Virus record (IMG/VR): IMGVR_UViG_3300021256_000038 | DNA: 37,101 bases | Strand: one strand, 5' to 3' | DNA from: a virus | In this document: positions 1-37,101 of the stretch, in pieces | Layout: each line of letters opens with the position of its first letter | Position numbering within the stretch: position 1 is the stretch's first letter | Program-made: the position numbers and the translations under genes | Notes under the pieces: generated by a model | The model's database searches: none | Told to the model about the DNA's origin: nothing | The model's input: the letters and a program-made list of their open reading frames with translations, nothing else

Positions 1-127
1 ACATCGTCCATGCCACCTGCATTCTTGATTGTCCAATAAATCATTGATGCATCGTCCAAATCATTAGCGAAACCAGAACGAATCAAATCGTAAGCGTCTA
101 TTTCATCACGTCTGCCATGTAGTTCAC
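1..127. repeat. Left copy of an exact 127-bp terminal duplication (identical to 36975-37101). This is a circular-assembly overlap.
   Basis: The string acatcgtccatgccacctgc...ctgccatgtagttcac is read at both window ends. It lies inside the portal reading frame, so it cannot be a physical genome end. Confidence 0.9.
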
Positions 128-842
128 TCAAATGCTTTGTATTTCCCCATAGTGGCACGACAGGGAAAGATGGATAATTCTCATAGTTATAAATAATATC
201 GCCGTCCACATCATGCAATACATCAATCTTATAGGCTCTCTTGTCAGCAACAATACTCCATTCGCCTTTCTTACGCTTGAAATCTGTATAGCCATCTAAT
301 TCAAATAGCGTAACCCTCAACGGCTTATTGTCTGCAACCTGCCAGAACCTTACACCTGCTTTCAATCCTCCGTCTTCTTCGTCCCATAACGGAGCAAACT
401 CCAAGGCACTAAATACTTCTACATGGTCATAATTAAAGAAATTATAAGACACTCCATGCACCAACGCATTCATGCCAGATGATTGTAATTTAATGTCGAA
501 ATCATCTCCACCTAATTTCTCTTTGGTTGTTTCATCATTAAACACAACACCATTGCCTAATAAATACTGATTTTCCTGTGTTACAAACCTATTGAAATAA
601 TTTGATGCACACTTGTAATTTGCACTGTAATTGTCTACAACTGCTTTACCTGTAACTGTATACAACAGCTTTTTATATTCTCTGATTGTAACATTGTCCT
701 GTCTGTTGTAGGAATCAGCAATAACAGCCTCTTTATAGAAAGAGCTTGATTTATACTCTACGATAACGCCATTAATAAACTGTGTAATGTCCTTGAAACT
801 TCTGTTTTCACCCAAAGCTAATAAATCTTGATACGTTTTCAT
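1..842 (-). CDS. Portal protein, N-terminal part (SPP1 gp6-type). The ORF runs off the left edge and continues at 36446-36974.
   Basis: ATG at 842-840 with GGAGG at 852-848. Hand translation MKTYQDLLALGENRSFKDITQF...LHGRRDEIDAYDLIRSGFANDLDDASMIYWTIKNAGGMDDV has no stop down to base 1. It joins the track ORF 36446..37060 in frame through the overlap. Joined length is 1371 nt, 456 aa. Confidence 0.85.
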   Translation of the reverse strand, partial: MKTYQDLLALGENRSFKDITQFINGVIVEYKSSSFYKEAVIADSYNRQDNVTIREYKKLLYTVTGKAVVDNYSANYKCASNYFNRFVTQENQYLLGNGVVFNDETTKEKLGGDDFDIKLQSSGMNALVHGVSYNFFNYDHVEVFSALEFAPLWDEEDGGLKAGVRFWQVADNKPLRVTLFELDGYTDFKRKKGEWSIVADKRAYKIDVLHDVDGDIIYNYENYPSFPVVPLWGNTKHLSELHGRRDEIDAYDLIRSGFANDLDDASMIYWTIKNAGGMDD

Positions 843-851
843 ATTGACCTC

Positions 852-3053
852 CTATTTCTTTTTCTTCATGATTCTTGCCAAGCATGCCGCACTATCACAA
901 TTCGATACTAATACACCATTTGCATAATAACAGCCTGCCTTCTCAACTGTGAGATTGTACACGGGCATAATATCGTTGTTTGCATAATGATGAACAGAAT
1001 TTATGTTTTGCTGACTTTGCTGTAAATGTGTTTCCGCAACATGCACATTGCTTTTCACATGGAGTGAATTTAAGCCCAATTCTTCTACGTCTTGCCTTTT
1101 GTTGGCAATTAACGCAACAAAATCTTTGCGTTTTTGTTGCAAGAAATTCTTTACCGCAAAATTCACAAATCTTAGGTGTTTCGTGTTTGCTCGCTTTGAG
1201 AATTGATTCTGCTGAATGTTTTCTATGCCATTCTCTGCCTTCTTCTGATTTATGCCATTCTTTTGCTTTTTCTCCTGCTTGAAGTAATTGTTCTTTGTTA
1301 CGTTCTCGATAATCTTCATTTTGCATATTTCTTTTAGCGTGCATCGACAGATGTTCCCTAGCTGATATACACTCCAGATTGCTGATGTCGTTATTGTCGA
1401 CATCACCATCAATATGATGTATGTGATAGCCTTTAGGAATTTCTCCATTGTAATATTCCCACACTGCTCTATGAAGCTGTCTGGCATTTTTTCTTTCTGC
1501 GTTTTTGGTTGTGTACTTGAAATAATATCGGCTCTTTGGATTTCTGATATAGGTTTCTCCATTGAATACAATAGTCTTTTTTTCCATGATAGTAACCTCC
1601 TTAATCCTATTGTATCAATTCTATCCGCACTATTCAAGCTATCCGCTGTTTTAAAGCCTTGATTATAAGTAAAAAATTTATGGTCATGCGTTGCATTTAC
1701 GCCATAATAATTACCTACTTTCTTATATCCTGTTATTCCTGCAAACGTCACTTTCCTAATTCCTGCTGGTGTTATTACATATTCTCCTATCTTTATATCT
1801 TTTATGGGTTTATTGCCTGTCAATGTCGCAATCATAGTGTTACCGTCTAAACATGCATCATCATGTTCTGCATTTTCGGTGTAATCTTCTATCTGCTTGA
1901 TATATTCTTCATCAGTTCCCTCAACAAATACAACCTCTTTCCATATTGCCTTAAGACACGTTGTTATCTTTATATGCTTGTTCATATCTTCATGGTACGT
2001 GACAACTTTCATGCCATAGGTCTTTCTCATTGCTTTTGCGACTAGTCCTTTATCAGCATTCTTTTCATTGTACAGCTTTCCTACCAATAAATAATCATAC
2101 CACCTCTTAATATCACTATAACAATCTTCTACATGCTTTCGCCATATTTTTCCAAAAACATAATATTTTCCATCGTGCTTCTGCATGACTGTTAAAGCTG
2201 TATAATCTTCTCCATAAAAGGCACTGTCCACATGAGCCAATCCATTCATGACAGCTGATGTGTCTGCTCTCTCTTTCTTAGGTTCAAAGATAACATCACT
2301 GTCGGCTCTATGCTTTAATTCATAGTTCGCACTAAACAATGACAAATCCATATGGTCTTTCTTGTATTGGATTTCTTCATCAGTAAGTAGCCCTGTTGTA
2401 TAACAATCATACTTTTTTGGTTTAGGCATCTTTGTAAAGGCATCATCTTTATGCCAAGGCGTACCTGTATTGAAAATACGTCCTGTCTCAATCTTGATGT
2501 TCTGCAATTCATCATAGATACGCTTAGTATGTTCTCTTTCTTTCTTTGAATATCTATCAGAGATGTTAACAATATCATCTGTAAATATCCTGTCGTAATG
2601 CTTTCCTGTTATCGAGGTATTCATACCTTTAGCAGTTAATTGGCATGTACCTCGTGGTCCATTAGCCAAATTGGTAGATAATTCATAGGCACTCTCTTTT
2701 GTAAGGTAGAAATCACAGCCGTATAACATTCTAACAAGATAGATGGTAAATGGATTCTTAATCATCTTCTTTACCTGTGCGATGATTTCTTTCACATCAT
2801 CATCGGTCTTACGCATGAACATGGTAGTGTCGTTTGGATAAAGAATAATAATAAGCAAAAAGGCGATAGATACGCATGTAGTCTTATAAGAACCACGATG
2901 TGCCTGTAACGTATCATCACCTTTGCCATATACCATGTCTTGAATCCATTTGTTATGAAGTTTCTTCTTTAGTTTTGTGAAACCTAATTCATGTGCAAGT
3001 GCAACAGGATTATCACGCAACTGTTTTAAAATCTTCTTCTGAATGGCATTCAT
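852..3053 (-). CDS. terL: Terminase large subunit precursor (400-aa N-extein, 318-aa intein, 15-aa C-extein).
   Basis: 733-aa ORF. ATPase motifs are HRGSYKTT (Walker A-like), RIFTDD (Walker B) and NTGTPW. Nuclease aspartates are HVDSAF and EHDDA. The frame is interrupted by CLDGNTM...VLVSN and resumes as CDSAACLARIM. The spliced size of 415 aa is typical for TerL. Confidence 0.9.
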   Translation of the reverse strand: MNAIQKKILKQLRDNPVALAHELGFTKLKKKLHNKWIQDMVYGKGDDTLQAHRGSYKTTCVSIAFLLIIILYPNDTTMFMRKTDDDVKEIIAQVKKMIKNPFTIYLVRMLYGCDFYLTKESAYELSTNLANGPRGTCQLTAKGMNTSITGKHYDRIFTDDIVNISDRYSKKEREHTKRIYDELQNIKIETGRIFNTGTPWHKDDAFTKMPKPKKYDCYTTGLLTDEEIQYKKDHMDLSLFSANYELKHRADSDVIFEPKKERADTSAVMNGLAHVDSAFYGEDYTALTVMQKHDGKYYVFGKIWRKHVEDCYSDIKRWYDYLLVGKLYNEKNADKGLVAKAMRKTYGMKVVTYHEDMNKHIKITTCLKAIWKEVVFVEGTDEEYIKQIEDYTENAEHDDACLDGNTMIATLTGNKPIKDIKIGEYVITPAGIRKVTFAGITGYKKVGNYYGVNATHDHKFFTYNQGFKTADSLNSADRIDTIGLRRLLSWKKRLLYSMEKPISEIQRADIISSTQPKTQKEKMPDSFIEQCGNITMEKFLKAITYIILMVMSTITTSAIWSVYQLGNICRCTLKEICKMKIIENVTKNNYFKQEKKQKNGINQKKAENGIENIQQNQFSKRANTKHLRFVNFAVKNFLQQKRKDFVALIANKRQDVEELGLNSLHVKSNVHVAETHLQQSQQNINSVHHYANNDIMPVYNLTVEKAGCYYANGVLVSNCDSAACLARIMKKKK
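900..1853 (-). mobile_element. Intein (Hint domain) inserted in the C-terminal nuclease motif of TerL.
   Basis: Block A is C-LDGNTMIATLTG (Cys1 codon 1853-1851). Block B is NATHDHKF (TxxH). Blocks F/G are VYNLTVEKAGCYYANGVLVSN (Asn codon 902-900), followed by the +1 Cys. The exteins rejoin to EHDDA-CDSAA, resembling the conserved hDDxxD nuclease motif. Confidence 0.85.
943..1587 (-). CDS. Free-standing HNH homing endonuclease nested inside the intein in a different reading frame.
   Basis: 214 aa with the HNH core HIHHIDGDVDNNDISNLECISAREH plus C-terminal CxxC zinc-ribbon pairs (CEFCG, CVNC, CACCG). It has its own ATG at 1587 and GGAGG at 1600-1596 with an 8-nt spacer. There is an in-frame TGA 9 codons upstream of the ATG. 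Confidence 0.85.
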   Translation of the reverse strand: MEKKTIVFNGETYIRNPKSRYYFKYTTKNAERKNARQLHRAVWEYYNGEIPKGYHIHHIDGDVDNNDISNLECISAREHLSMHAKRNMQNEDYRERNKEQLLQAGEKAKEWHKSEEGREWHRKHSAESILKASKHETPKICEFCGKEFLATKTQRFCCVNCQQKARRRRIGLKFTPCEKQCACCGNTFTAKSAKHKFCSSLCKQRYYARVQSHS

Positions 3054-3055
3054 GA

Positions 3056-3412
3056 TTATTCCTCTAGGAACTTAGTAAATTCTTCTTGTACTTCATCACT
3101 AATATTGACGTTTGTATTTTCTACCTTATCAGTCTGTCCTAAGTACTGTTTGCCTAGCCAAATTAACATAGGAGTATTACCTCCCATTGCAACCTCAAAC
3201 TGCTTACGTCTCAATGAAATTTTTCCTTTGCCAGAGAATCTTTTAAAGCATTCGGAAAAATCCATCTTATACGTTCTTTTGCACCATTTGACTAGCGTTT
3301 TATCTGTTGTGTTAAAGAATGTACATATTTCACTTTGCGTACACATCAACCCACATAGATTTTCAAAATCTTTTTTATCGAAATCCTTTTGGGGTCTGCC
3401 TGCTTTAGCCAT
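3056..3412 (-). CDS. terS: Terminase small subunit (HTH type).
   Basis: 118 aa. The N-terminus is AKAGRPQKDF, with an HTH-like CTQSEICTFFNTTDKTLVKWCK, then GGNTPMLIWLGKQYLGQ, which is typical of small terminases. It sits immediately upstream of terL. Confidence 0.75.
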   Translation of the reverse strand: MAKAGRPQKDFDKKDFENLCGLMCTQSEICTFFNTTDKTLVKWCKRTYKMDFSECFKRFSGKGKISLRRKQFEVAMGGNTPMLIWLGKQYLGQTDKVENTNVNISDEVQEEFTKFLEE

Positions 3413-3464: not shown

Positions 3465-3938
3465 CTATTTTTTTAGTTTTTTCAATACATCAATGGTCTT
3501 TTCTTCTGCCATGATTACATCATCAAACTTTCGCATTAACTCGACAATTTGCAATTGTGTCATTATATCTTCGTGCAATTCAATTTCAAAGAAAGAGAAA
3601 TCTGCCATTTGTATATTGATTGTACTTTGATAATTTGCTAAAAATTTTGGAACCGACCTTTCCAATGCAATTTTAAAATATTCAGGAACAACTTCAATTT
3701 TCGGTAAAATCACTGCATTTTTAGTTTCTATATAATTGTCGGAAGTTAACATATTTATTTGTCCATGCGTTGCGGAGACTTTGATATAACACGTTCCTTT
3801 CTGATATATTTGATTACGCTTAGCTCTCTGTACGTCTGCAATTTCAGTTAATTTATATTCTTTAGTTGTCAAATTCAAACTCCAACACCTCTTGTTTCCA
3901 CTTTCTTTGAGCACCTGTAACTGATTGCTTATACTCAC
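3465..3938 (-). CDS. hsdS: Type I HsdS-like specificity half-subunit (one target-recognition domain plus a conserved helix). The start is uncertain.
   Basis: TRD-like EYKLTEIADVQRAK...AVILPKIEVVPEYFKIAL, followed by a conserved-region helix HEDIMTQLQIVELMRKFDDVIMAEEKTIDVLKKLKK. A GTG start at 3938 overlaps the MTase 3' end by 77 nt. Confidence 0.65.
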   Translation of the reverse strand: MSISNQLQVLKESGNKRCWSLNLTTKEYKLTEIADVQRAKRNQIYQKGTCYIKVSATHGQINMLTSDNYIETKNAVILPKIEVVPEYFKIALERSVPKFLANYQSTINIQMADFSFFEIELHEDIMTQLQIVELMRKFDDVIMAEEKTIDVLKKLKK

Positions 3939-5133
3939 GCACTCCCTTTTTTAGTTTTGAGTCTGATTCAAATGTGGTTCCATGCATTTCTCTAATCATA
4001 TCCAACAATGCTTTTTTTGTCTTAAAACATTCATCTTCTAACATTGCCAGCTCCTGCATAGTTTCAACAAAATCAGGTATCGGCTCTGGAATGTAAGTAT
4101 CTACATATCTTGGAATATTTAAATTGCTTTCGTTTTTTTCAATTTCTTCAAACGTTGCAACATGGGTGAATCGCTTTATATCGGTACGAGATTTATAAGC
4201 ATTAATTATACGTGTTAAATTTTTATCCCGAATTATATTTTTTTGTTTAACCTTTTCGGCTTCATCTTTTGCGTCAATAAAATATACGTCCGAATCAGTT
4301 CGCCCTTTTTCAATTTCAATGACACAAGTAGGTATGTCGGTATTAATAAAAAGTTTATTAGGTAATCCAATTATCGTGCGAATCAAATTTTTTTGCAACA
4401 TCAATTGTCTGAACTTTTTTTCTTTATTGCTTCTAAACAACACGCCGTGTGGCAAAATGAACGCACATTTTCCTTTGTCTTTTAAAATTGATAGTGCAAA
4501 TGCAACAAACACAAAGTCCGCAAAGTTTGTCGGTAGCATATCAGCAAACTGTGGGAATCTGTTATCATTCTTCGGATTATATTTCATTGAATATGGTGGA
4601 TTGCTGATAACAGCGTCCACCTTAATTTGTGGAATTTCAATAACCTGTCTCACATTTGAAAAGTGTTCACTAGGTGTAACTTCATATGTTTCAAATGTTT
4701 CACCTGTCAGCAAATCAGCACGATAAACAATAGCATTTATGTTTCTGATTGACAAATTGAATAGTAACAAAGGTATCGCACGACTGCTCAATTCGTAGCA
4801 TATGAATTTTGATGATTTATTATGATTCCAAACACCAATTGTTAAACCACCTGTGCCAGCACACACATCGGCTATTACACCAGCTTTTTCTATAATTTGT
4901 GATAATAAACCACAAACTTCTGGTGGTGTAAAACACTGTGCCATTTTGCTTTTATTGGCATGTTCTTCTTCAAAATATTCTGTAAACCAATCATGATTTA
5001 GAGATTCGCCTAACTGCATGAATTGGTTGTAAATTGGTGTCATATCTTCGTTGAGTATTTTATGCAACAAGACACCAGGCAATTGAAAACTTTCTTGAAT
5101 CCCAAATATATGATTTATGTCTGCTGATTTCAT
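3862..5133 (-). CDS. hsdM: N6-adenine DNA methyltransferase, type I HsdM-like (gamma class), short form.
   Basis: 423 aa. The SAM motif is DVCAGTGGL, the catalytic motif is NPPYSMKY, and the HsdM-like C-terminal motif is NLNIPRYVD. Confidence 0.85.
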   Translation of the reverse strand: MKSADINHIFGIQESFQLPGVLLHKILNEDMTPIYNQFMQLGESLNHDWFTEYFEEEHANKSKMAQCFTPPEVCGLLSQIIEKAGVIADVCAGTGGLTIGVWNHNKSSKFICYELSSRAIPLLLFNLSIRNINAIVYRADLLTGETFETYEVTPSEHFSNVRQVIEIPQIKVDAVISNPPYSMKYNPKNDNRFPQFADMLPTNFADFVFVAFALSILKDKGKCAFILPHGVLFRSNKEKKFRQLMLQKNLIRTIIGLPNKLFINTDIPTCVIEIEKGRTDSDVYFIDAKDEAEKVKQKNIIRDKNLTRIINAYKSRTDIKRFTHVATFEEIEKNESNLNIPRYVDTYIPEPIPDFVETMQELAMLEDECFKTKKALLDMIREMHGTTFESDSKLKKGVREYKQSVTGAQRKWKQEVLEFEFDN

Positions 5134-5934
5134 TTACCATTTTCCTCCATAGTGTACTTTAGTTAAATTACACGCTTTAGCATTATTTCTGTATTCCTTT
5201 AATGACTGCGTTCCAAGTTCAATTCGACCCATAAGGAACACAACTTTGTCCGCATCCTTTGACGTGGCAATCAACTCCAGCATAGATTTCTTAATATTTT
5301 TCAGCTTTTCCAGCTTACGCTGATGAAGGGTGATAAGGTTGTCGATTCTCTCAAAATACTCGCCCAGCTTAATTTGTTCTTCCATTGATGGATAGGAAAC
5401 TGTAGTACCACCAACAAGCTCTTTGTTGAGGTTATTAACGGTACTTCCTGCTGCCATAGCTTTGTATTGTGAAAGCATATTATCTGTGCCGAGAAGTATG
5501 CATAAAAACTTCAAATCGAAGTTCTTATGAGTATCACGAATAGCAAGCCAACCATCGTGAATGCACCCATTTATCGCCATTATATAAGGTCTACCAAAGC
5601 TCATTGAATTGGATAAAATCAAATCACCCGGGTGTACTTCTCTTGTTTTTGAAAGACCCTCAGGTCTAATTTTTTCTGCTGTCTGCGTTATATAGTTTCC
5701 CTGCTCCGGAGCATCACCAATCTTAACCCAATTTAACCCATTTTCATCTTTAGTAATAAATTTATCTATTGGTCTTGGAGAACCTCCACGCTCTATTGTG
5801 ACAAGTTCAGAAAACTTACGCTGTTCCCAATCGTCAGTAAATCCTTCAAATCTAATTTCAGGAACTTTTGCTCCCTCACGAGGAAACATTTTTTCGAGCA
5901 TGGATAAATTTAAATCTTTGTCTTTATGATACAT
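5134..5934 (-). CDS. hsdS: Type I HsdS-like specificity half-subunit (TRD1, central conserved region and a truncated tail).
   Basis: 266 aa. The TRD reads WEQRKFSELVTIERGGSPRP...GDLILSNSMSFGRPYI...IHDGWL. The conserved region reads SMEEQIKLGEYFERIDNLITLHQRKLEKLKNIKKSML. The stop directly abuts the MTase ATG. Confidence 0.8.
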   Translation of the reverse strand: MYHKDKDLNLSMLEKMFPREGAKVPEIRFEGFTDDWEQRKFSELVTIERGGSPRPIDKFITKDENGLNWVKIGDAPEQGNYITQTAEKIRPEGLSKTREVHPGDLILSNSMSFGRPYIMAINGCIHDGWLAIRDTHKNFDLKFLCILLGTDNMLSQYKAMAAGSTVNNLNKELVGGTTVSYPSMEEQIKLGEYFERIDNLITLHQRKLEKLKNIKKSMLELIATSKDADKVVFLMGRIELGTQSLKEYRNNAKACNLTKVHYGGKW

Positions 5935-35177: not shown

Positions 35178-35516
35178 TTATTTCATAAAAGATTCTAATT
35201 TATCTTTATATTCGACAAGATGTGTAGCCACCGAGTCTCTTAAGAAGTGTGCATGTCCAGATGGGTGGCTCTTACTATCATCAAATTCAACATATTTGCC
35301 ATATTCTACATTGGTTCCTACATACAACACCTTATCGTCTCCCTCGTCTGTTATCTCGGTTGTGATTGAATTTCTTAGGTTTCCTGTATCAACAGGACAT
35401 AGATTTTTAGCGTTGTTTTCAACTTCATTGGCTACTGCATGCATACCTTGATTTAACTTATTAAATATCTCCTGTTTGCAAGCATCGATGTTATCTGTAA
35501 TTTTAAAATCCATCAT
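35178..35516 (-). CDS. HK97 gp10-family protein.
   Basis: 112 aa counted from ATG 35516, which forms an ATGA overlap with the upstream stop and has GGGAGGAAATGGACAG upstream. The motif is AKNLCPVDTGNLRNSI...YVGTNVEYGKYVEF. Confidence 0.75.
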   Translation of the reverse strand: MMDFKITDNIDACKQEIFNKLNQGMHAVANEVENNAKNLCPVDTGNLRNSITTEITDEGDDKVLYVGTNVEYGKYVEFDDSKSHPSGHAHFLRDSVATHLVEYKDKLESFMK

Positions 35517-36439
35517 CTGTCCATTTCCTCCCATTCTTTCTTGGTATAGATATGTCTTAAGATTGTACATCGGCAATTCCAAGTTTCTTCTGGCTCTCCT
35601 GTTGGGTCTGCAGGACACATCAAGCCATTTGAAAAGGGTTCATCTACCAACACTTCTTCGCCATCTAATTCTGCATGGCTTTCTCTCGTTCTGTCGTCTG
35701 CCGTTGCAACCCATACTTTTGTACATACAACATCATTATCTTCATCAATCTTTTGTATTGCATCTAATCGCCCTTTATTTTGAGCATATGTAATCATTGT
35801 ACGAGCATTCCTTACTGCTGATTTCCTATCCATCGTGCTAATAGTTTGTAATCTTTTAGCCAATTCTTTAGGGTGTTCTCCCTTTTTGATTGACTGCAAT
35901 AACTGTGAATTGATAGCCTTGATGTTCCATTTCATGTCTTTATCAATATCCAAATCCTTTACTAAAGGCAGAAAAGATTTATCTGCATTCTTGATAAGAT
36001 TATTGATAACATTTTCATCAATCAAATCAAACTTGATGCCACCTATCTTGAAATCCTTGATTGTATTCTTGCCAATGAAATTGTAGTTCTTGGTATATAT
36101 CTTCCCTACAAAATTATTGACAATATCCAACGCACCTTTATTAACATCTGCTATCTTTCTTGCTACTTTATCGAGCATCTTCTTATATCTGTCGCTTAAT
36201 ATTGTCTTACTGAAAAGATAGCTTTCATATGCCTTTGTTGTCTTTTCAATCAAAACCTTATCTCCAACCTTTTTAGCATCTTCTTTATCTTTTATCAGTG
36301 CTTCTACTTCTGGCTCCATATCATCAATATATTTGCTCCAATCGGTAATACCAAGCCATGCCACTGCATAATACTTCCCAATCTTCTTTTCTAGCTCTTT
36401 TATCTGCTTATCAGTCCACTTGTGGGCTTTATCTGGCAT
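35513..36439 (-). CDS. Head morphogenesis protein (SPP1 gp7 / phage Mu F-like).
   Basis: 308 aa with RNARTMITYAQNKGRLDAI and VWVATADDRTRESHAELDGEEV. It follows the portal gene. Confidence 0.8.
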   Translation of the reverse strand: MPDKAHKWTDKQIKELEKKIGKYYAVAWLGITDWSKYIDDMEPEVEALIKDKEDAKKVGDKVLIEKTTKAYESYLFSKTILSDRYKKMLDKVARKIADVNKGALDIVNNFVGKIYTKNYNFIGKNTIKDFKIGGIKFDLIDENVINNLIKNADKSFLPLVKDLDIDKDMKWNIKAINSQLLQSIKKGEHPKELAKRLQTISTMDRKSAVRNARTMITYAQNKGRLDAIQKIDEDNDVVCTKVWVATADDRTRESHAELDGEEVLVDEPFSNGLMCPADPTGEPEETWNCRCTILRHIYTKKEWEEMDR

Positions 36440-36445
36440 TTATCA

Positions 36446-37101
36446 TCACTCCTTAACAGGTTCTTCTGGCTCATTTGTTTCTGGTTCCTTTGGTGTAACA
36501 AATCTGTCAGACTCGTCTCTTGTCAATGCATCTAAAATAGTCTCGATTTCATCATTAGATAAGAACGGTAAATGAGTCAAGATTGTTTTGGTATCAAGAT
36601 ACTGTGCACACGATAGAACCATCTGAGTTTCTTCCTGCTGGTTAACAATTCTAGAACGTGTAAATTTAGGTGTATCTTCTACACTGATTAAATGCAGAAT
36701 CTGTTTAATGAACGTGCTTACGCAATATTCAAATGAATCAGTTTTATTGTCCAGTGGTCCATATGAAGCCTTGATTGCAGTTGCAGTAACATTGGAAGAA
36801 ATCTGCGACATATTCAAGGCCATAAAATCATTATACAAATCATTCTCCAATCTATCCAAATATGCAACTCTTGATTGATAAGGTACGTCCATTGTATGTG
36901 CTTCTGCCTGTTCATCATCATCAAAAGCATATGCCTTGACGGTTTTCATACGCTGTACAAACTGAGCCAAGTCTACATCGTCCATGCCACCTGCATTCTT
37001 GATTGTCCAATAAATCATTGATGCATCGTCCAAATCATTAGCGAAACCAGAACGAATCAAATCGTAAGCGTCTATTTCATCACGTCTGCCATGTAGTTCA
37101 C
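36446..37101 (-). CDS. Portal protein, C-terminal part. It is continuous with 1-842 through the circular junction, and 36975-37101 duplicates 1-127.
   Basis: The track ORF 36446..37060 starts at an internal TTG. Upstream the frame stays open to the window edge and reads ...YDLIRSGFANDLDD, identical to the left-edge translation. Confidence 0.85.
   Translation of the reverse strand, partial: ELHGRRDEIDAYDLIRSGFANDLDDASMIYWTIKNAGGMDDVDLAQFVQRMKTVKAYAFDDDEQAEAHTMDVPYQSRVAYLDRLENDLYNDFMALNMSQISSNVTATAIKASYGPLDNKTDSFEYCVSTFIKQILHLISVEDTPKFTRSRIVNQQEETQMVLSCAQYLDTKTILTHLPFLSNDEIETILDALTRDESDRFVTPKEPETNEPEEPVKE
36975..37101. repeat. Right copy of the 127-bp terminal duplication.
   Basis: Identical to bases 1-127. 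Confidence 0.9.

Follow-up and report, generated by a model that had tools for sequence, protein, structure and literature searches.

A putative composite mobile element in a phage large-terminase gene: an HNH endonuclease gene nested out of frame within an intein

Endonuclease genes lying out of frame or antisense within inteins were first described in actinobacteriophages, in a 2025 preprint (Gosselin et al., 10.1101/2025.01.02.630785) that drew on a data set of PhagesDB only and whose out-of-frame case is an endonuclease-VII-like gene (IPR004211) in 'frame 3'. Other described systems come close in different ways: fractured genes combine split inteins with free-standing GIY-YIG and Vsr-like endonucleases (Dassa et al. 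2009, PMC2677866), and a hidden out-of-frame HNH gene, the ShiLan domain, resides in a phage DNA methylase with no intein (Arsenault et al. 2025, PMC11855218). Inteins are well known in the large subunit of the phage terminase (TerL), but a survey of mycobacteriophages found them only in its ATPase domain (PMC5050341). Here we analyse a stretch of viral DNA of 37,101 nucleotides (nt), the IMG/VR record IMGVR_UViG_3300021256_000038 (hereafter the window), whose terL gene very probably carries a composite mobile element, namely a class-1 mini-intein whose endonuclease slot holds, in the +2 frame, an HNH homing-endonuclease gene of the free-standing type. The intein had already been proposed in an earlier note made from the sequence alone. 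All features given with coordinates in the window lie on its minus strand.

The TerL precursor is encoded by an open reading frame (ORF) at 852..3053, which consists of 733 codons uninterrupted by any stop and is terminated by a TAG at 852-854. The ORF matches the PHROG profiles of the terminase large subunit (6e-59 and 1e-56), and an AlphaFold2 model of the extein part (residues 1-390) reaches a predicted local distance difference test score (pLDDT) of about 90. Solved TerL structures matched by this model in a fold search include those of PhiV-1 (7.8e-17), D6E, T4 (gp17), HK97 and Sf6; the fold search was used instead of a phmmer search of the intein-less TerL against the Protein Data Bank (PDB), in which no terminase was matched. 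Megablast of the terL gene against GenBank phages likewise gave no match, and neither did a comparison of the spliced window TerL with Pfam at E<0.01. A protein search retrieved thousands of TerL homologues, most of them 415-430 amino acids (aa) long and about 20 of 660-760 aa.

The earlier note attributed the length of the 733-aa ORF to 318 extra residues at 900-1853, and all its coordinates and quoted strings proved exact. The intein-less homologues of 415-430 aa align colinearly with the window protein and read ...AEHDDA-PDSCSCLARIMKKKK across the insertion point, which is thereby confirmed by the very alignment the note had suggested as a check. One of these homologues, P0003 (415 aa), is 98.8% identical to the N-extein and has Pro where the window has Cys+1; since it reads straight across the site, the insert amounts to exactly 318 codons. 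At the DNA level, five intein-less alleles (L013, L177 and L179-L181; 89-95% identity) lack exactly the corresponding 954 nt. The precursor can thus be divided into an N-extein of residues 1-400 (1854..3053), comprising the ATPase domain along with the greater part of the RNase-H-like nuclease domain and ending with ...AEHDDA; an intein of 318 codons (900..1853; Cys1...Ser317-Asn318, residues 401-718 of the ORF), delimited by the alignment to the five intein-less alleles and by Hint profiles; and a C-extein of 15 codons, CDSAACLARIMKKKK (855..899), in which Cys+1 is the predicted splicing nucleophile.

The position of the insertion relative to the nuclease domain deserves particular attention. 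Removal of the insert joins EHDDA to CDSAACLARIM, which the earlier note interpreted as the restoration of a nuclease motif, and this interpretation agrees both with the five intein-less alleles and with the finding that H397, D398 and D399 are invariant among 36 TerL homologues. Judging from TerL structures, the H/D...D motif of the nuclease presumably binds metal, and the last motif of the domain presumably corresponds to the H-x-x-D motif of the SPP1 protein G2P. In relatives of the window protein, the Pfam models Terminase_6C and Terminase_3C span the junction, which lies within a few residues of the C-terminus of the model. Given that the spliced window TerL itself has no Pfam match, the placement of the junction rests on these relatives, the invariant residues and the presumed likeness to SPP1 G2P. 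Together, the sequence comparisons support the view that the intein splits the RNase-H-like nuclease domain at its C-terminal end, within the last conserved acidic/His motif, whereas the TerL inteins found in the mycobacteriophage survey reside in the ATPase domain.

The insert has the hallmarks of a splicing domain at both ends. Its N-terminal Hint part (intein residues 1-88; 1590..1853) opens with Cys-LDGNTMIATLTG, and comprises block A (CLDGNTMIATLTG) and block B, the latter represented by THDH within the interior string NATHDHKF. The C-terminal Hint part, with blocks F and G (PVYNLTVEKAGCYYANGVLVSN; 900..965), ends with VYNLTVEKAGCYYANGVLVSN, followed by Cys. Position 1 of the intein (Cys401 of the ORF) is Cys in 86 of 88 related loci, the two remaining ones being contig-edge parsing artefacts; T55 and H58 of the block B tetrad (intein residues 55-58) are invariant in 13 family members; and the C-terminus reads ...VSN|C, with the +1 residue being Cys in 76 and Ser in 12 of the 88 loci. 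When the two Hint halves of the 13 family members were combined, with the middle removed, into a profile, its positions 2-127 of 128 were covered in comparisons with solved mini-inteins, the matches including a BIL domain (2lwy; 2.9e-10), gp41-1 (6qaz; 5.6e-10), NrdJ-1, DnaB, DnaE and DnaX. Pfam searches of the same 13 members returned Hint_2 or Intein_splicing, in 12 and 9 of them, respectively, and the window ORF as a whole matches Intein_splicing (E=3e-8). The Hint motifs pointed out in the earlier note are thus borne out by both kinds of profile search, including the one it recommended, and the observation of a class-1 Hint-domain intein is confirmed. A group I intron with an HNH gene was also considered as a candidate and ruled out, given that an Rfam scan of positions 700-2100 gave no match at E<=1 (group I introns included), the host frame stays open and there are Hint motifs.

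What the earlier note overlooked is the nature of the middle part. It treated the 318 residues as one intein polypeptide; the intein is real, but about 215 of its codons are the by-product of a gene read in a different frame, and this gene is the more unusual of the two features. The intein contains no in-frame endonuclease domain, and the HNH gene sits in the +2 frame relative to TerL, at 943..1587, with 214 codons and a TGA stop. In the TerL frame, the intervening spacer (intein residues ~89-296; 966..1589) is an out-of-frame reading of the same DNA, and the corresponding part of the full-precursor AlphaFold2 model (precursor residues 479-699) has a pLDDT of about 30 and no confident fold. 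The predicted HNH product, MEKKTIVFNGETY... if initiated at 1587, begins with an HNH_3 nuclease (HH...NN...N...H) and continues with two C-terminal zinc fingers of the pattern C-x2-C...C-x3-C, which resemble FCS-type fingers. HNH_3 (PF13392) is the sole Pfam match of the 214-aa ORF (E=3.2e-18; 65.5 bits versus a cut-off of 24.8), and the PHROG HNH endonuclease profile matches it with 7.8e-27. The catalytic His and Asn residues (H57, H58, N65, N66, N70 and H79) are invariant in 40 sequences, and the eight Cys, in two sets of four, vary little or not at all among the 40 homologues.

An AlphaFold2 model of the HNH protein, built with the 40 homologues, has a mean pLDDT of 91.1 and combines a beta/alpha HNH module at the N-terminus with three long helices and a pair of small zinc-finger modules. 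Its top fold match in PDB is I-HmuI (1u3e; match probability 0.90), and it shares with I-HmuI-type and free-standing phage HNH_3 enzymes the HNH_3 core and the modular layout of a nuclease combined with DNA-binding parts. It differs from I-HmuI in having an intein, rather than an intron, as its carrier, and in having two FCS-like zinc fingers instead of the helical/helix-turn-helix modules of I-HmuI. From sequence conservation and modelling combined, we conclude that the nested 214-aa ORF is a real gene, with an HNH_3 or I-HmuI-like endonuclease with two zinc fingers as its predicted product. Its exact protein sequence is absent from a collection of 15 billion proteins.

The nested gene comes with its own start signal. 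The Shine-Dalgarno (SD) sequence AAGGAGG (1596..1602), which reads ...GLRRLL... in the intein frame, lies 8 nt upstream of the ATG (1585-1587), and purine-rich SD-like motifs occur 3-10 nt upstream of the HNH start in seven of nine lineages examined. Frame +2 has 63 stops in the 478 codons ahead of the HNH ORF and none inside it, and the HNH stop codon is situated 23 nt into the block-F coding sequence, such that the first 23 nt of the C-terminal Hint part are shared with the end of the HNH ORF. Two further details of this region can be mentioned here. A perfect 9-bp inverted repeat (ATACAATAG ... CTATTGTAT; 1566..1574 and 1607..1615) brackets the SD sequence and the start codon, and might mask the ribosome-binding site, a mode of control known from other regulated homing-endonuclease genes of phages; the RNA around the HNH start has no significant folding energy (z = -0.65). 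A run of seven A (ATGGAAAAAAAG; region 1575..1602) directly follows the ATG, 12 nt downstream of AAGGAGG; it occurs only in the window and L008 and is probably incidental.

Dual coding of this DNA leaves a clear imprint. Across the HNH gene the TerL frame is free of stops in the window and every nested relative, 88 of 88 contiguous loci having none. The same relative frame (HNH+1) contains 8, 11 and 12 stops, respectively, in free-standing homologues from Lactobacillus phage CL2, Exiguobacterium phage vB_EauM-23 and Acinetobacter phage BP10; in the 59 loci where no Hint domain was detected, it averages 7.4 stops per 200 codons. When synonymous codons were permuted within the HNH gene, the probability of zero TerL-frame stops was 0.0067 for the window, 1.5e-4 for Clostridium phage phiCDHM19 and 1e-4 for Acinetobacter phage Highwayman, ranging from 1e-4 to 0.02 in AT-rich lineages and being higher in GC-rich ones; the test is conservative, because selection has already filtered the protein whose codons are shuffled. 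A comparison of the window with L008 is equally telling. In the N-terminal Hint part, 18 of 21 differences fall on TerL codon position 3, pointing to purifying selection on the TerL frame there, and all four differences in the C-terminal Hint part do the same. In the overlap, 26 of 39 differences fall on TerL position 2, i.e. HNH position 3, the counts at HNH positions 1, 2 and 3 being 7, 6 and 26. The amino-acid identity to the window is 95% (L008) and 69% (L010) for the HNH protein versus 85% and 48% for the spacer read in the TerL frame. This switch of codon positions and the difference in identities show that the overlap is selected for the HNH protein, with the TerL frame being selected only for the absence of stops. 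Judging from these patterns, both frames are kept by selection, and about 640 nt would encode two proteins.

The distribution of the element among close relatives is patchy. The 90%-identity TerL cluster to which the window belongs has 18 members, most of them intein-less proteins of 415 aa and two of 733 aa. The window and the second intein-bearing allele, L178, differ at 63 of 1200 nt in the N-extein (5.3%) versus 7 of 954 nt in the intein (0.7%). Two more distant proteins, P0001 and P0002, are 57% and 49% identical to the window in the exteins versus 95-97% in the Hint part, with the C-terminal Hint part being 100% identical in both, and the HNH protein encoded at the locus of P0002 (L008) is about 95% identical despite the divergent extein. 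On the other hand, the proteins with the nearest exteins, P0003 (98.8%) and P0020 (66%), have no intein. The low divergence of the intein and its presence/absence polymorphism indicate a recent lateral spread and point to homing.

A further trace of mobility may be preserved next to the insertion site. An 18-nt patch directly 3' of it, TGTGATAGTGCGGCATGC (encoding CDSAAC; 882..899), travels with the intein: the patch or a close variant is found at the DNA level in the intein-bearing window, L008 and L010, with L178 being the same as the window there. All five intein-less alleles have CCAGAYTCWTGCTCATGT (PDSCSC) instead, so that the uninterrupted site reads, for example in L013 and L179, ...GAACATGATGATGCA|CCAGAYTCWTGCTCATGT.... 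In L013 and L179-L181, 10-11 of the 18 nt differ from the patch, which is followed by at least 50 identical nt, as against a background divergence of 5-6%; L177, the fifth intein-less allele, is more diverged and differs also farther downstream. On this pattern, the patch looks like a co-conversion tract or a target-immunity patch.

Other mobile elements turn up in the same group of phages. Three relatives with an intein-less terL, L177 (5135-6248), L179 (5162-6248) and L180 (5125-6211), have a different intein in the gene for a Mu-F-like minor head protein (587-592 aa), recognized by Pfam Intein_splicing and with the junction ...GEPEEVYN|CFIPETK.... The Mu-F gene of the window (35513..36439) encodes an intein-less protein of 308 aa that reads ...GEPEETWN-CRCTIL... 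at this place; the presence of the TerL and Mu-F inteins being reversed between these phages, the two intein sites are polymorphic in opposite directions within the group. In L008, a gene for a GIY-YIG endonuclease (2436-3047) lies directly upstream of terL and overlaps its start, constituting a second homing-type nuclease at terL.

To see how widespread the nested architecture is, we assembled 176 HNH loci, recovered from GenBank phages by tblastn of the HNH protein and supplemented with 160 fetched loci (80 from IMG/VR and 80 from GTDB genomes, the best 80 matches in each collection), and classified them with hidden Markov models of the two Hint halves. In several GenBank phages the tblastn matches hit DNA annotated only as terminase large subunit, the phages being Clostridium phage phiCDHM19, Tetrasphaera phage TJE1, Acinetobacter phage Highwayman, a Rhodobacteraceae phage and an unannotated faecal phage contig. 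All of them have the HNH gene at +2 inside an open TerL ORF, with Hint motifs on both sides and the insertion at the equivalent motif, the junctions being HDDA|CDA, PDHI|CDA, YIDA|CRY, EDH|SYD and DNH|CID. Overall, 88 of the 176 loci (plus 4-6 at relaxed thresholds) are contiguous with the HNH gene at +2, and three IMG/VR loci (L050, L075 and L079) are contiguous with the gene at +1, their junctions at the same TerL motif including EDH|C...HN|SADDCRY and ADHA|C...HN|CDALRY. The in-frame arrangement was found in none of the 176, so both out-of-frame phases exist and the in-frame one was not found. Nearly all junctions fall at the same TerL motif, in Terminase_6-type as well as Terminase_3-type proteins. 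The host labels comprise Lachnospiraceae, Bacteroides/Prevotella, Nostoc, Mycobacterium, Corynebacterium, Patescibacteria and some archaeal metagenome-assembled genomes (MAGs), where binning may misassign viral contigs.

About 15-18 loci have the Hint halves split by stops or located in different frames, as exemplified by Vibrio phage 1.238.A (L014; NC_055735.1, 2100-3420). Its ORF for the N-terminal part of TerL and the N-terminal Hint half is closed by a stop; the unannotated HNH gene located between the halves contains more than 15 further stops when read in that frame; and an ORF annotated as 'hint domain protein', in the original frame, carries the C-terminal Hint half and the C-extein. 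The other fractured loci include L023, L037, L042, L069, L147, L154, L173, L122 and L161. These loci, with cultured phages among them, are candidate natural split inteins in an essential packaging gene. They invite comparison with the fractured genes of Dassa et al., with which the window shares the order of an N-extein joined to an N-terminal intein half, an endonuclease gene with its own start, and a C-terminal intein half joined to a C-extein. Two solved split inteins of that work, gp41-1 and NrdJ-1, rank among the best matches of our Hint profile, and Vibrio phage 1.238.A and about 15 other loci hold the HNH family of the window in a fractured configuration at the same TerL site. In the window, however, the host ORF is unbroken, the intein frame reads through and splicing would occur in cis; the genes overlap, whereas in the fractured genes of Dassa et al. 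a non-coding gap of 27-51 nt is present and the endonucleases are GIY-YIG or Vsr-like.

A special case is Clostridium phage phi CD119 (L004; NC_007917.1, 201-2595), whose terL is annotated as ter1, ter2 and ORF3, the last being a 'hypothetical protein' that corresponds to the spacer, the C-terminal Hint half and the C-extein and that defines PHROG 35162 of 'unknown function'. Three stops separate its Hint halves, reflecting either old sequencing errors or real fracturing. In 59 of the 176 loci no Hint domain was detected; the classifier is conservative, and the fractured L014 was filed in this class. Eight of the no-Hint loci have one stop-free overlapping frame (HNH+1 in L067, L077, L088, L091, L093 and L174, and HNH+2 in L046 and L090), and what surrounds their HNH genes may be inteins of a more divergent kind or ShiLan-type insertions that lack an intein. 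ShiLan resembles the window in that an HNH gene is nested out of frame in an open host ORF with a homing-like distribution; it differs in that the ShiLan insert has no detectable splicing domains, whereas the HNH gene of the window is flanked by complete Hint halves. Shortened HNH ORFs lacking one zinc finger were encountered in L012 and L015, and free-standing HNH homologues sit directly beside the terS, terL or portal genes in Lactobacillus phage CL2, Exiguobacterium phage vB_EauM-23 and Acinetobacter phage BP10.

We envisage the following mode of operation of the element. Ribosomes translating the TerL mRNA would read through the HNH DNA in frame 0 and produce a precursor of 733 aa and 84 kDa, in which an unstructured spacer of about 210 residues links the Hint halves. 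The intein would then splice by the class-1 route (N-S shift at Cys1, attack by Cys+1 and cyclization of Asn318), joining HDDA to CDS... and so completing the last metal-binding motif of the nuclease in a TerL of 415 aa. Activation of the packaging nuclease would therefore depend on splicing, and it is reasonable to infer that packaging does as well. Other ribosomes would initiate internally on this mRNA, at the AAGGAGG-8 nt-ATG signal, and produce the HNH/zinc-finger endonuclease of 214 aa and 24 kDa, which may nick or cut the intein-less terL of co-infecting phages at or near GATGATGCA|CCAGATTCATGCTCATGT. Upon repair, the cut allele would acquire the intein together with the nested gene and the 18-nt patch beside it. 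Unless the halves trans-splice, a TerL-frame stop within the spacer would abolish packaging, which would explain both the strict avoidance of stops and the minority of fractured genes.

Several points weigh against this reading and have to be acknowledged. The penultimate intein residue is Ser317 rather than the usual His, as the earlier note had correctly observed; Ser occupies this position in about 24 and His in about 60 of the 88 related inteins, so the comparison presents it as a family trait of about a quarter of the members, and phage inteins without the penultimate His are known to splice still (PMC5050341). The Pfam Intein_splicing score of the window ORF, 34.0 bits, is just under the curated cut-off of 35.8. 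The Hint halves have a pLDDT of only about 50 in the model of the full precursor, and since they are not confidently predicted there, the model is not counted as evidence for the Hint fold. The Foldseek match of the HNH model to I-HmuI is weak (E 0.035; template modelling score, TM, 0.29-0.35), with the low TM being attributable to the extended, multi-domain shape of the model, and the beta-beta-alpha-metal fold is a tentative assignment. No obvious SD sequence precedes the HNH start in two of the nine lineages. The survey, confined in each collection to its best matches, includes a few near-duplicates and relies on MAG taxonomy, and the free-standing copies beside terminase genes would fit a packaging-related nuclease role, too. 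Splicing, translation of the nested ORF, DNA cleavage and homing are, finally, deduced from the anatomy and the evolutionary patterns, which are what we observe directly.

Some of these points lend themselves to alternative interpretations. Some phages are known to have inteins with the HNH domain in frame (cited in bioRxiv 10.1101/2025.01.02.630785), and one might ask whether the window simply has such a canonical intein, the frame offset being an artefact of sequencing or assembly caused by two compensating indels; phi CD119, sequenced in 2006, does have extra frame breaks. We find this scarcely credible, as the +2 offset with both frames open recurs in 88 loci from isolates, IMG/VR and genomes with no in-frame counterpart, the HNH ORF starts at its own SD sequence and ATG just after stops in that frame and ends in an overlap with block F, a near-identical copy (L178) comes from another sample, and the codon-position patterns fit two real frames. 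A different way of deriving the HNH protein from the TerL reading would be programmed -1 ribosomal frameshifting, yielding a fusion of the N-extein, the N-terminal Hint half and HNH. The HNH frame is indeed -1 (=+2) with respect to TerL, and the A7 run after the ATG, with AAGGAGG upstream of it, has a layout resembling the dnaX frameshift site. The run is, however, missing from L010, L012, L001, L002, L003, L015 and L016, and frameshifting on it was rejected for this lack of conservation; the conserved element is a start codon with an SD sequence ahead of it, three loci use the +1 offset, and RNA structure at the site is not significant, as noted above. All this makes frameshifting highly improbable.

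It is also conceivable that the nested HNH ORF is an inactive relic, or was never translated, and that the locus is a vertically inherited mini-intein with a long spacer. Translation and cleavage are, after all, inferences, gene callers never call the ORF, its exact protein is missing from the protein collection, and L012 and L015 carry the shortened versions. Yet a relic would be expected to accumulate stops in its own frame, and the ORF is intact in more than 88 loci with the catalytic residues and zinc ligands invariant; differences concentrate at HNH third codon positions; the HNH model has a pLDDT of 91; and the intein together with HNH is far less diverged than the exteins and polymorphic within the 90% TerL cluster, which requires a recent transfer. 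We thus regard the relic interpretation as unlikely. Still less inclined are we to see the HNH protein mainly as an accessory packaging nuclease that works with the terminase, in the manner of the HNH proteins encoded beside terminase genes in HK97-like phages, with its gene placed inside terL so that the two are expressed together. HNH nickases with a zinc ribbon, encoded next to terminase genes, have been documented (PMC3592412), and the free-standing homologues beside terS, terL or portal genes in CL2, vB_EauM-23 and BP10 are compatible with such a role. This adjacency is, however, equally expected of a homing gene that targets terL, and the relatives with an intein-less terL (L177 and L179-L181) have no HNH gene between terS, terL and portal; its absence from this block of close relatives suggests that HNH is dispensable for packaging. 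Furthermore, the window protein is HNH_3 or I-HmuI-like, not a small HNH protein of the PF01844 type that terminase cleavage requires, of which HK97 gp74 is presumably an example, and the low divergence of the intein, its presence/absence pattern and the co-converted patch bear the marks of homing.

A composite element of intein and nested HNH gene is close in its layout to the out-of-frame case of Gosselin et al. In both, the splicing blocks enclose an endonuclease ORF of the same strand in frame 3 (= +2), the intein frame is uninterrupted and its translation across the endonuclease gene has no recognizable structure; terminase large subunits are among the hosts, and ongoing transfer was argued for there as well. 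The differences concern the endonuclease itself, which is endonuclease-VII-like in the preprint and HNH_3 with two zinc fingers in the window, the host range, which for the window's family spans contigs from Firmicutes, Bacteroidota, Proteobacteria, Cyanobacteria, Actinobacteria and archaeal MAGs, and the variety of forms, as +2, +1, fractured and free-standing ones all occur within this one endonuclease family. Searching by tblastn with family members from TJE1 and a Mycobacterium prophage matched none of the preprint's phages, so we treat the two as different endonuclease families, set apart by searches with these relatives rather than with the preprint's own sequences. In the literature searched, we found no paper linking an intein to phiCD119, phiCDHM19 or TJE1, nor any describing the HNH_3/zinc-finger family nested in inteins. 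We therefore classify the element as new relative to the recently described out-of-frame kind in its endonuclease family, its target site, its much wider host range and the occurrence of all evolutionary states in one family.

Generalizing from the window, one may go further and entertain a large, essentially unannotated family of composite elements in many bacterial phyla and possibly archaea, in which the HNH gene is as a rule never in frame, is dual-coded with the spacer and targets the last TerL nuclease motif. The survey behind such a rule returned no in-frame and at least 91 out-of-frame cases, and we put the generalization forward tentatively, as somewhat short of an even bet. If it is true, selection should either favour translating the endonuclease under its own control or disfavour its fusion in frame; a nonsense spacer of about 210 residues would be tolerated in an essential packaging nuclease and may time its activation; and living examples would exist of the whole path from a free-standing endonuclease gene, through its nesting in a mini-intein, to a fractured gene with a split intein.

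These observations have several practical aspects. Gene callers and GenBank label the genes in question as terminase large subunits of about 730-800 aa (e.g. in phiCDHM19, TJE1 and Highwayman), missing both the intein and the endonuclease gene. With some 640 nt read in two frames, one apparently selected for a protein and the other only for the lack of stops, the locus offers a clean natural case for studying the maintenance of overlapping genes. The occurrence of free-standing, nested (+2 and +1) and fractured states at one target site makes the model in which an endonuclease invades a mini-intein that then fractures directly testable. The Hint halves seem to take an unstructured insert of more than 200 residues, and their closest solved relatives are the fast split inteins gp41-1 and NrdJ-1; because of this tolerance and kinship, the split relatives may supply new inteins for trans-splicing. 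The HNH/zinc-finger enzymes, for their part, are candidate site-specific nickases.

The genomic setting of terL in the window is that of a packaging gene cluster. A gene for the small terminase subunit (3056..3412) precedes terL, and the next gene encodes a portal protein of the SPP1 type. The portal gene is split over the window ends (1..842 and 36446..37060, matching profile positions 22-237 and 218-411), and its presence at both ends makes the window look circular or circularly permuted, with a length of about 37 kb and opened inside this gene. Just upstream of the terminase genes, the region 3862..5934 encodes a 423-aa N6-adenine DNA methylase that has an Eco57I-like region, and then a 266-aa protein resembling the specificity subunit of type I systems; in the relative L177 other genes (dUTPase and ParB_N) occupy this position.

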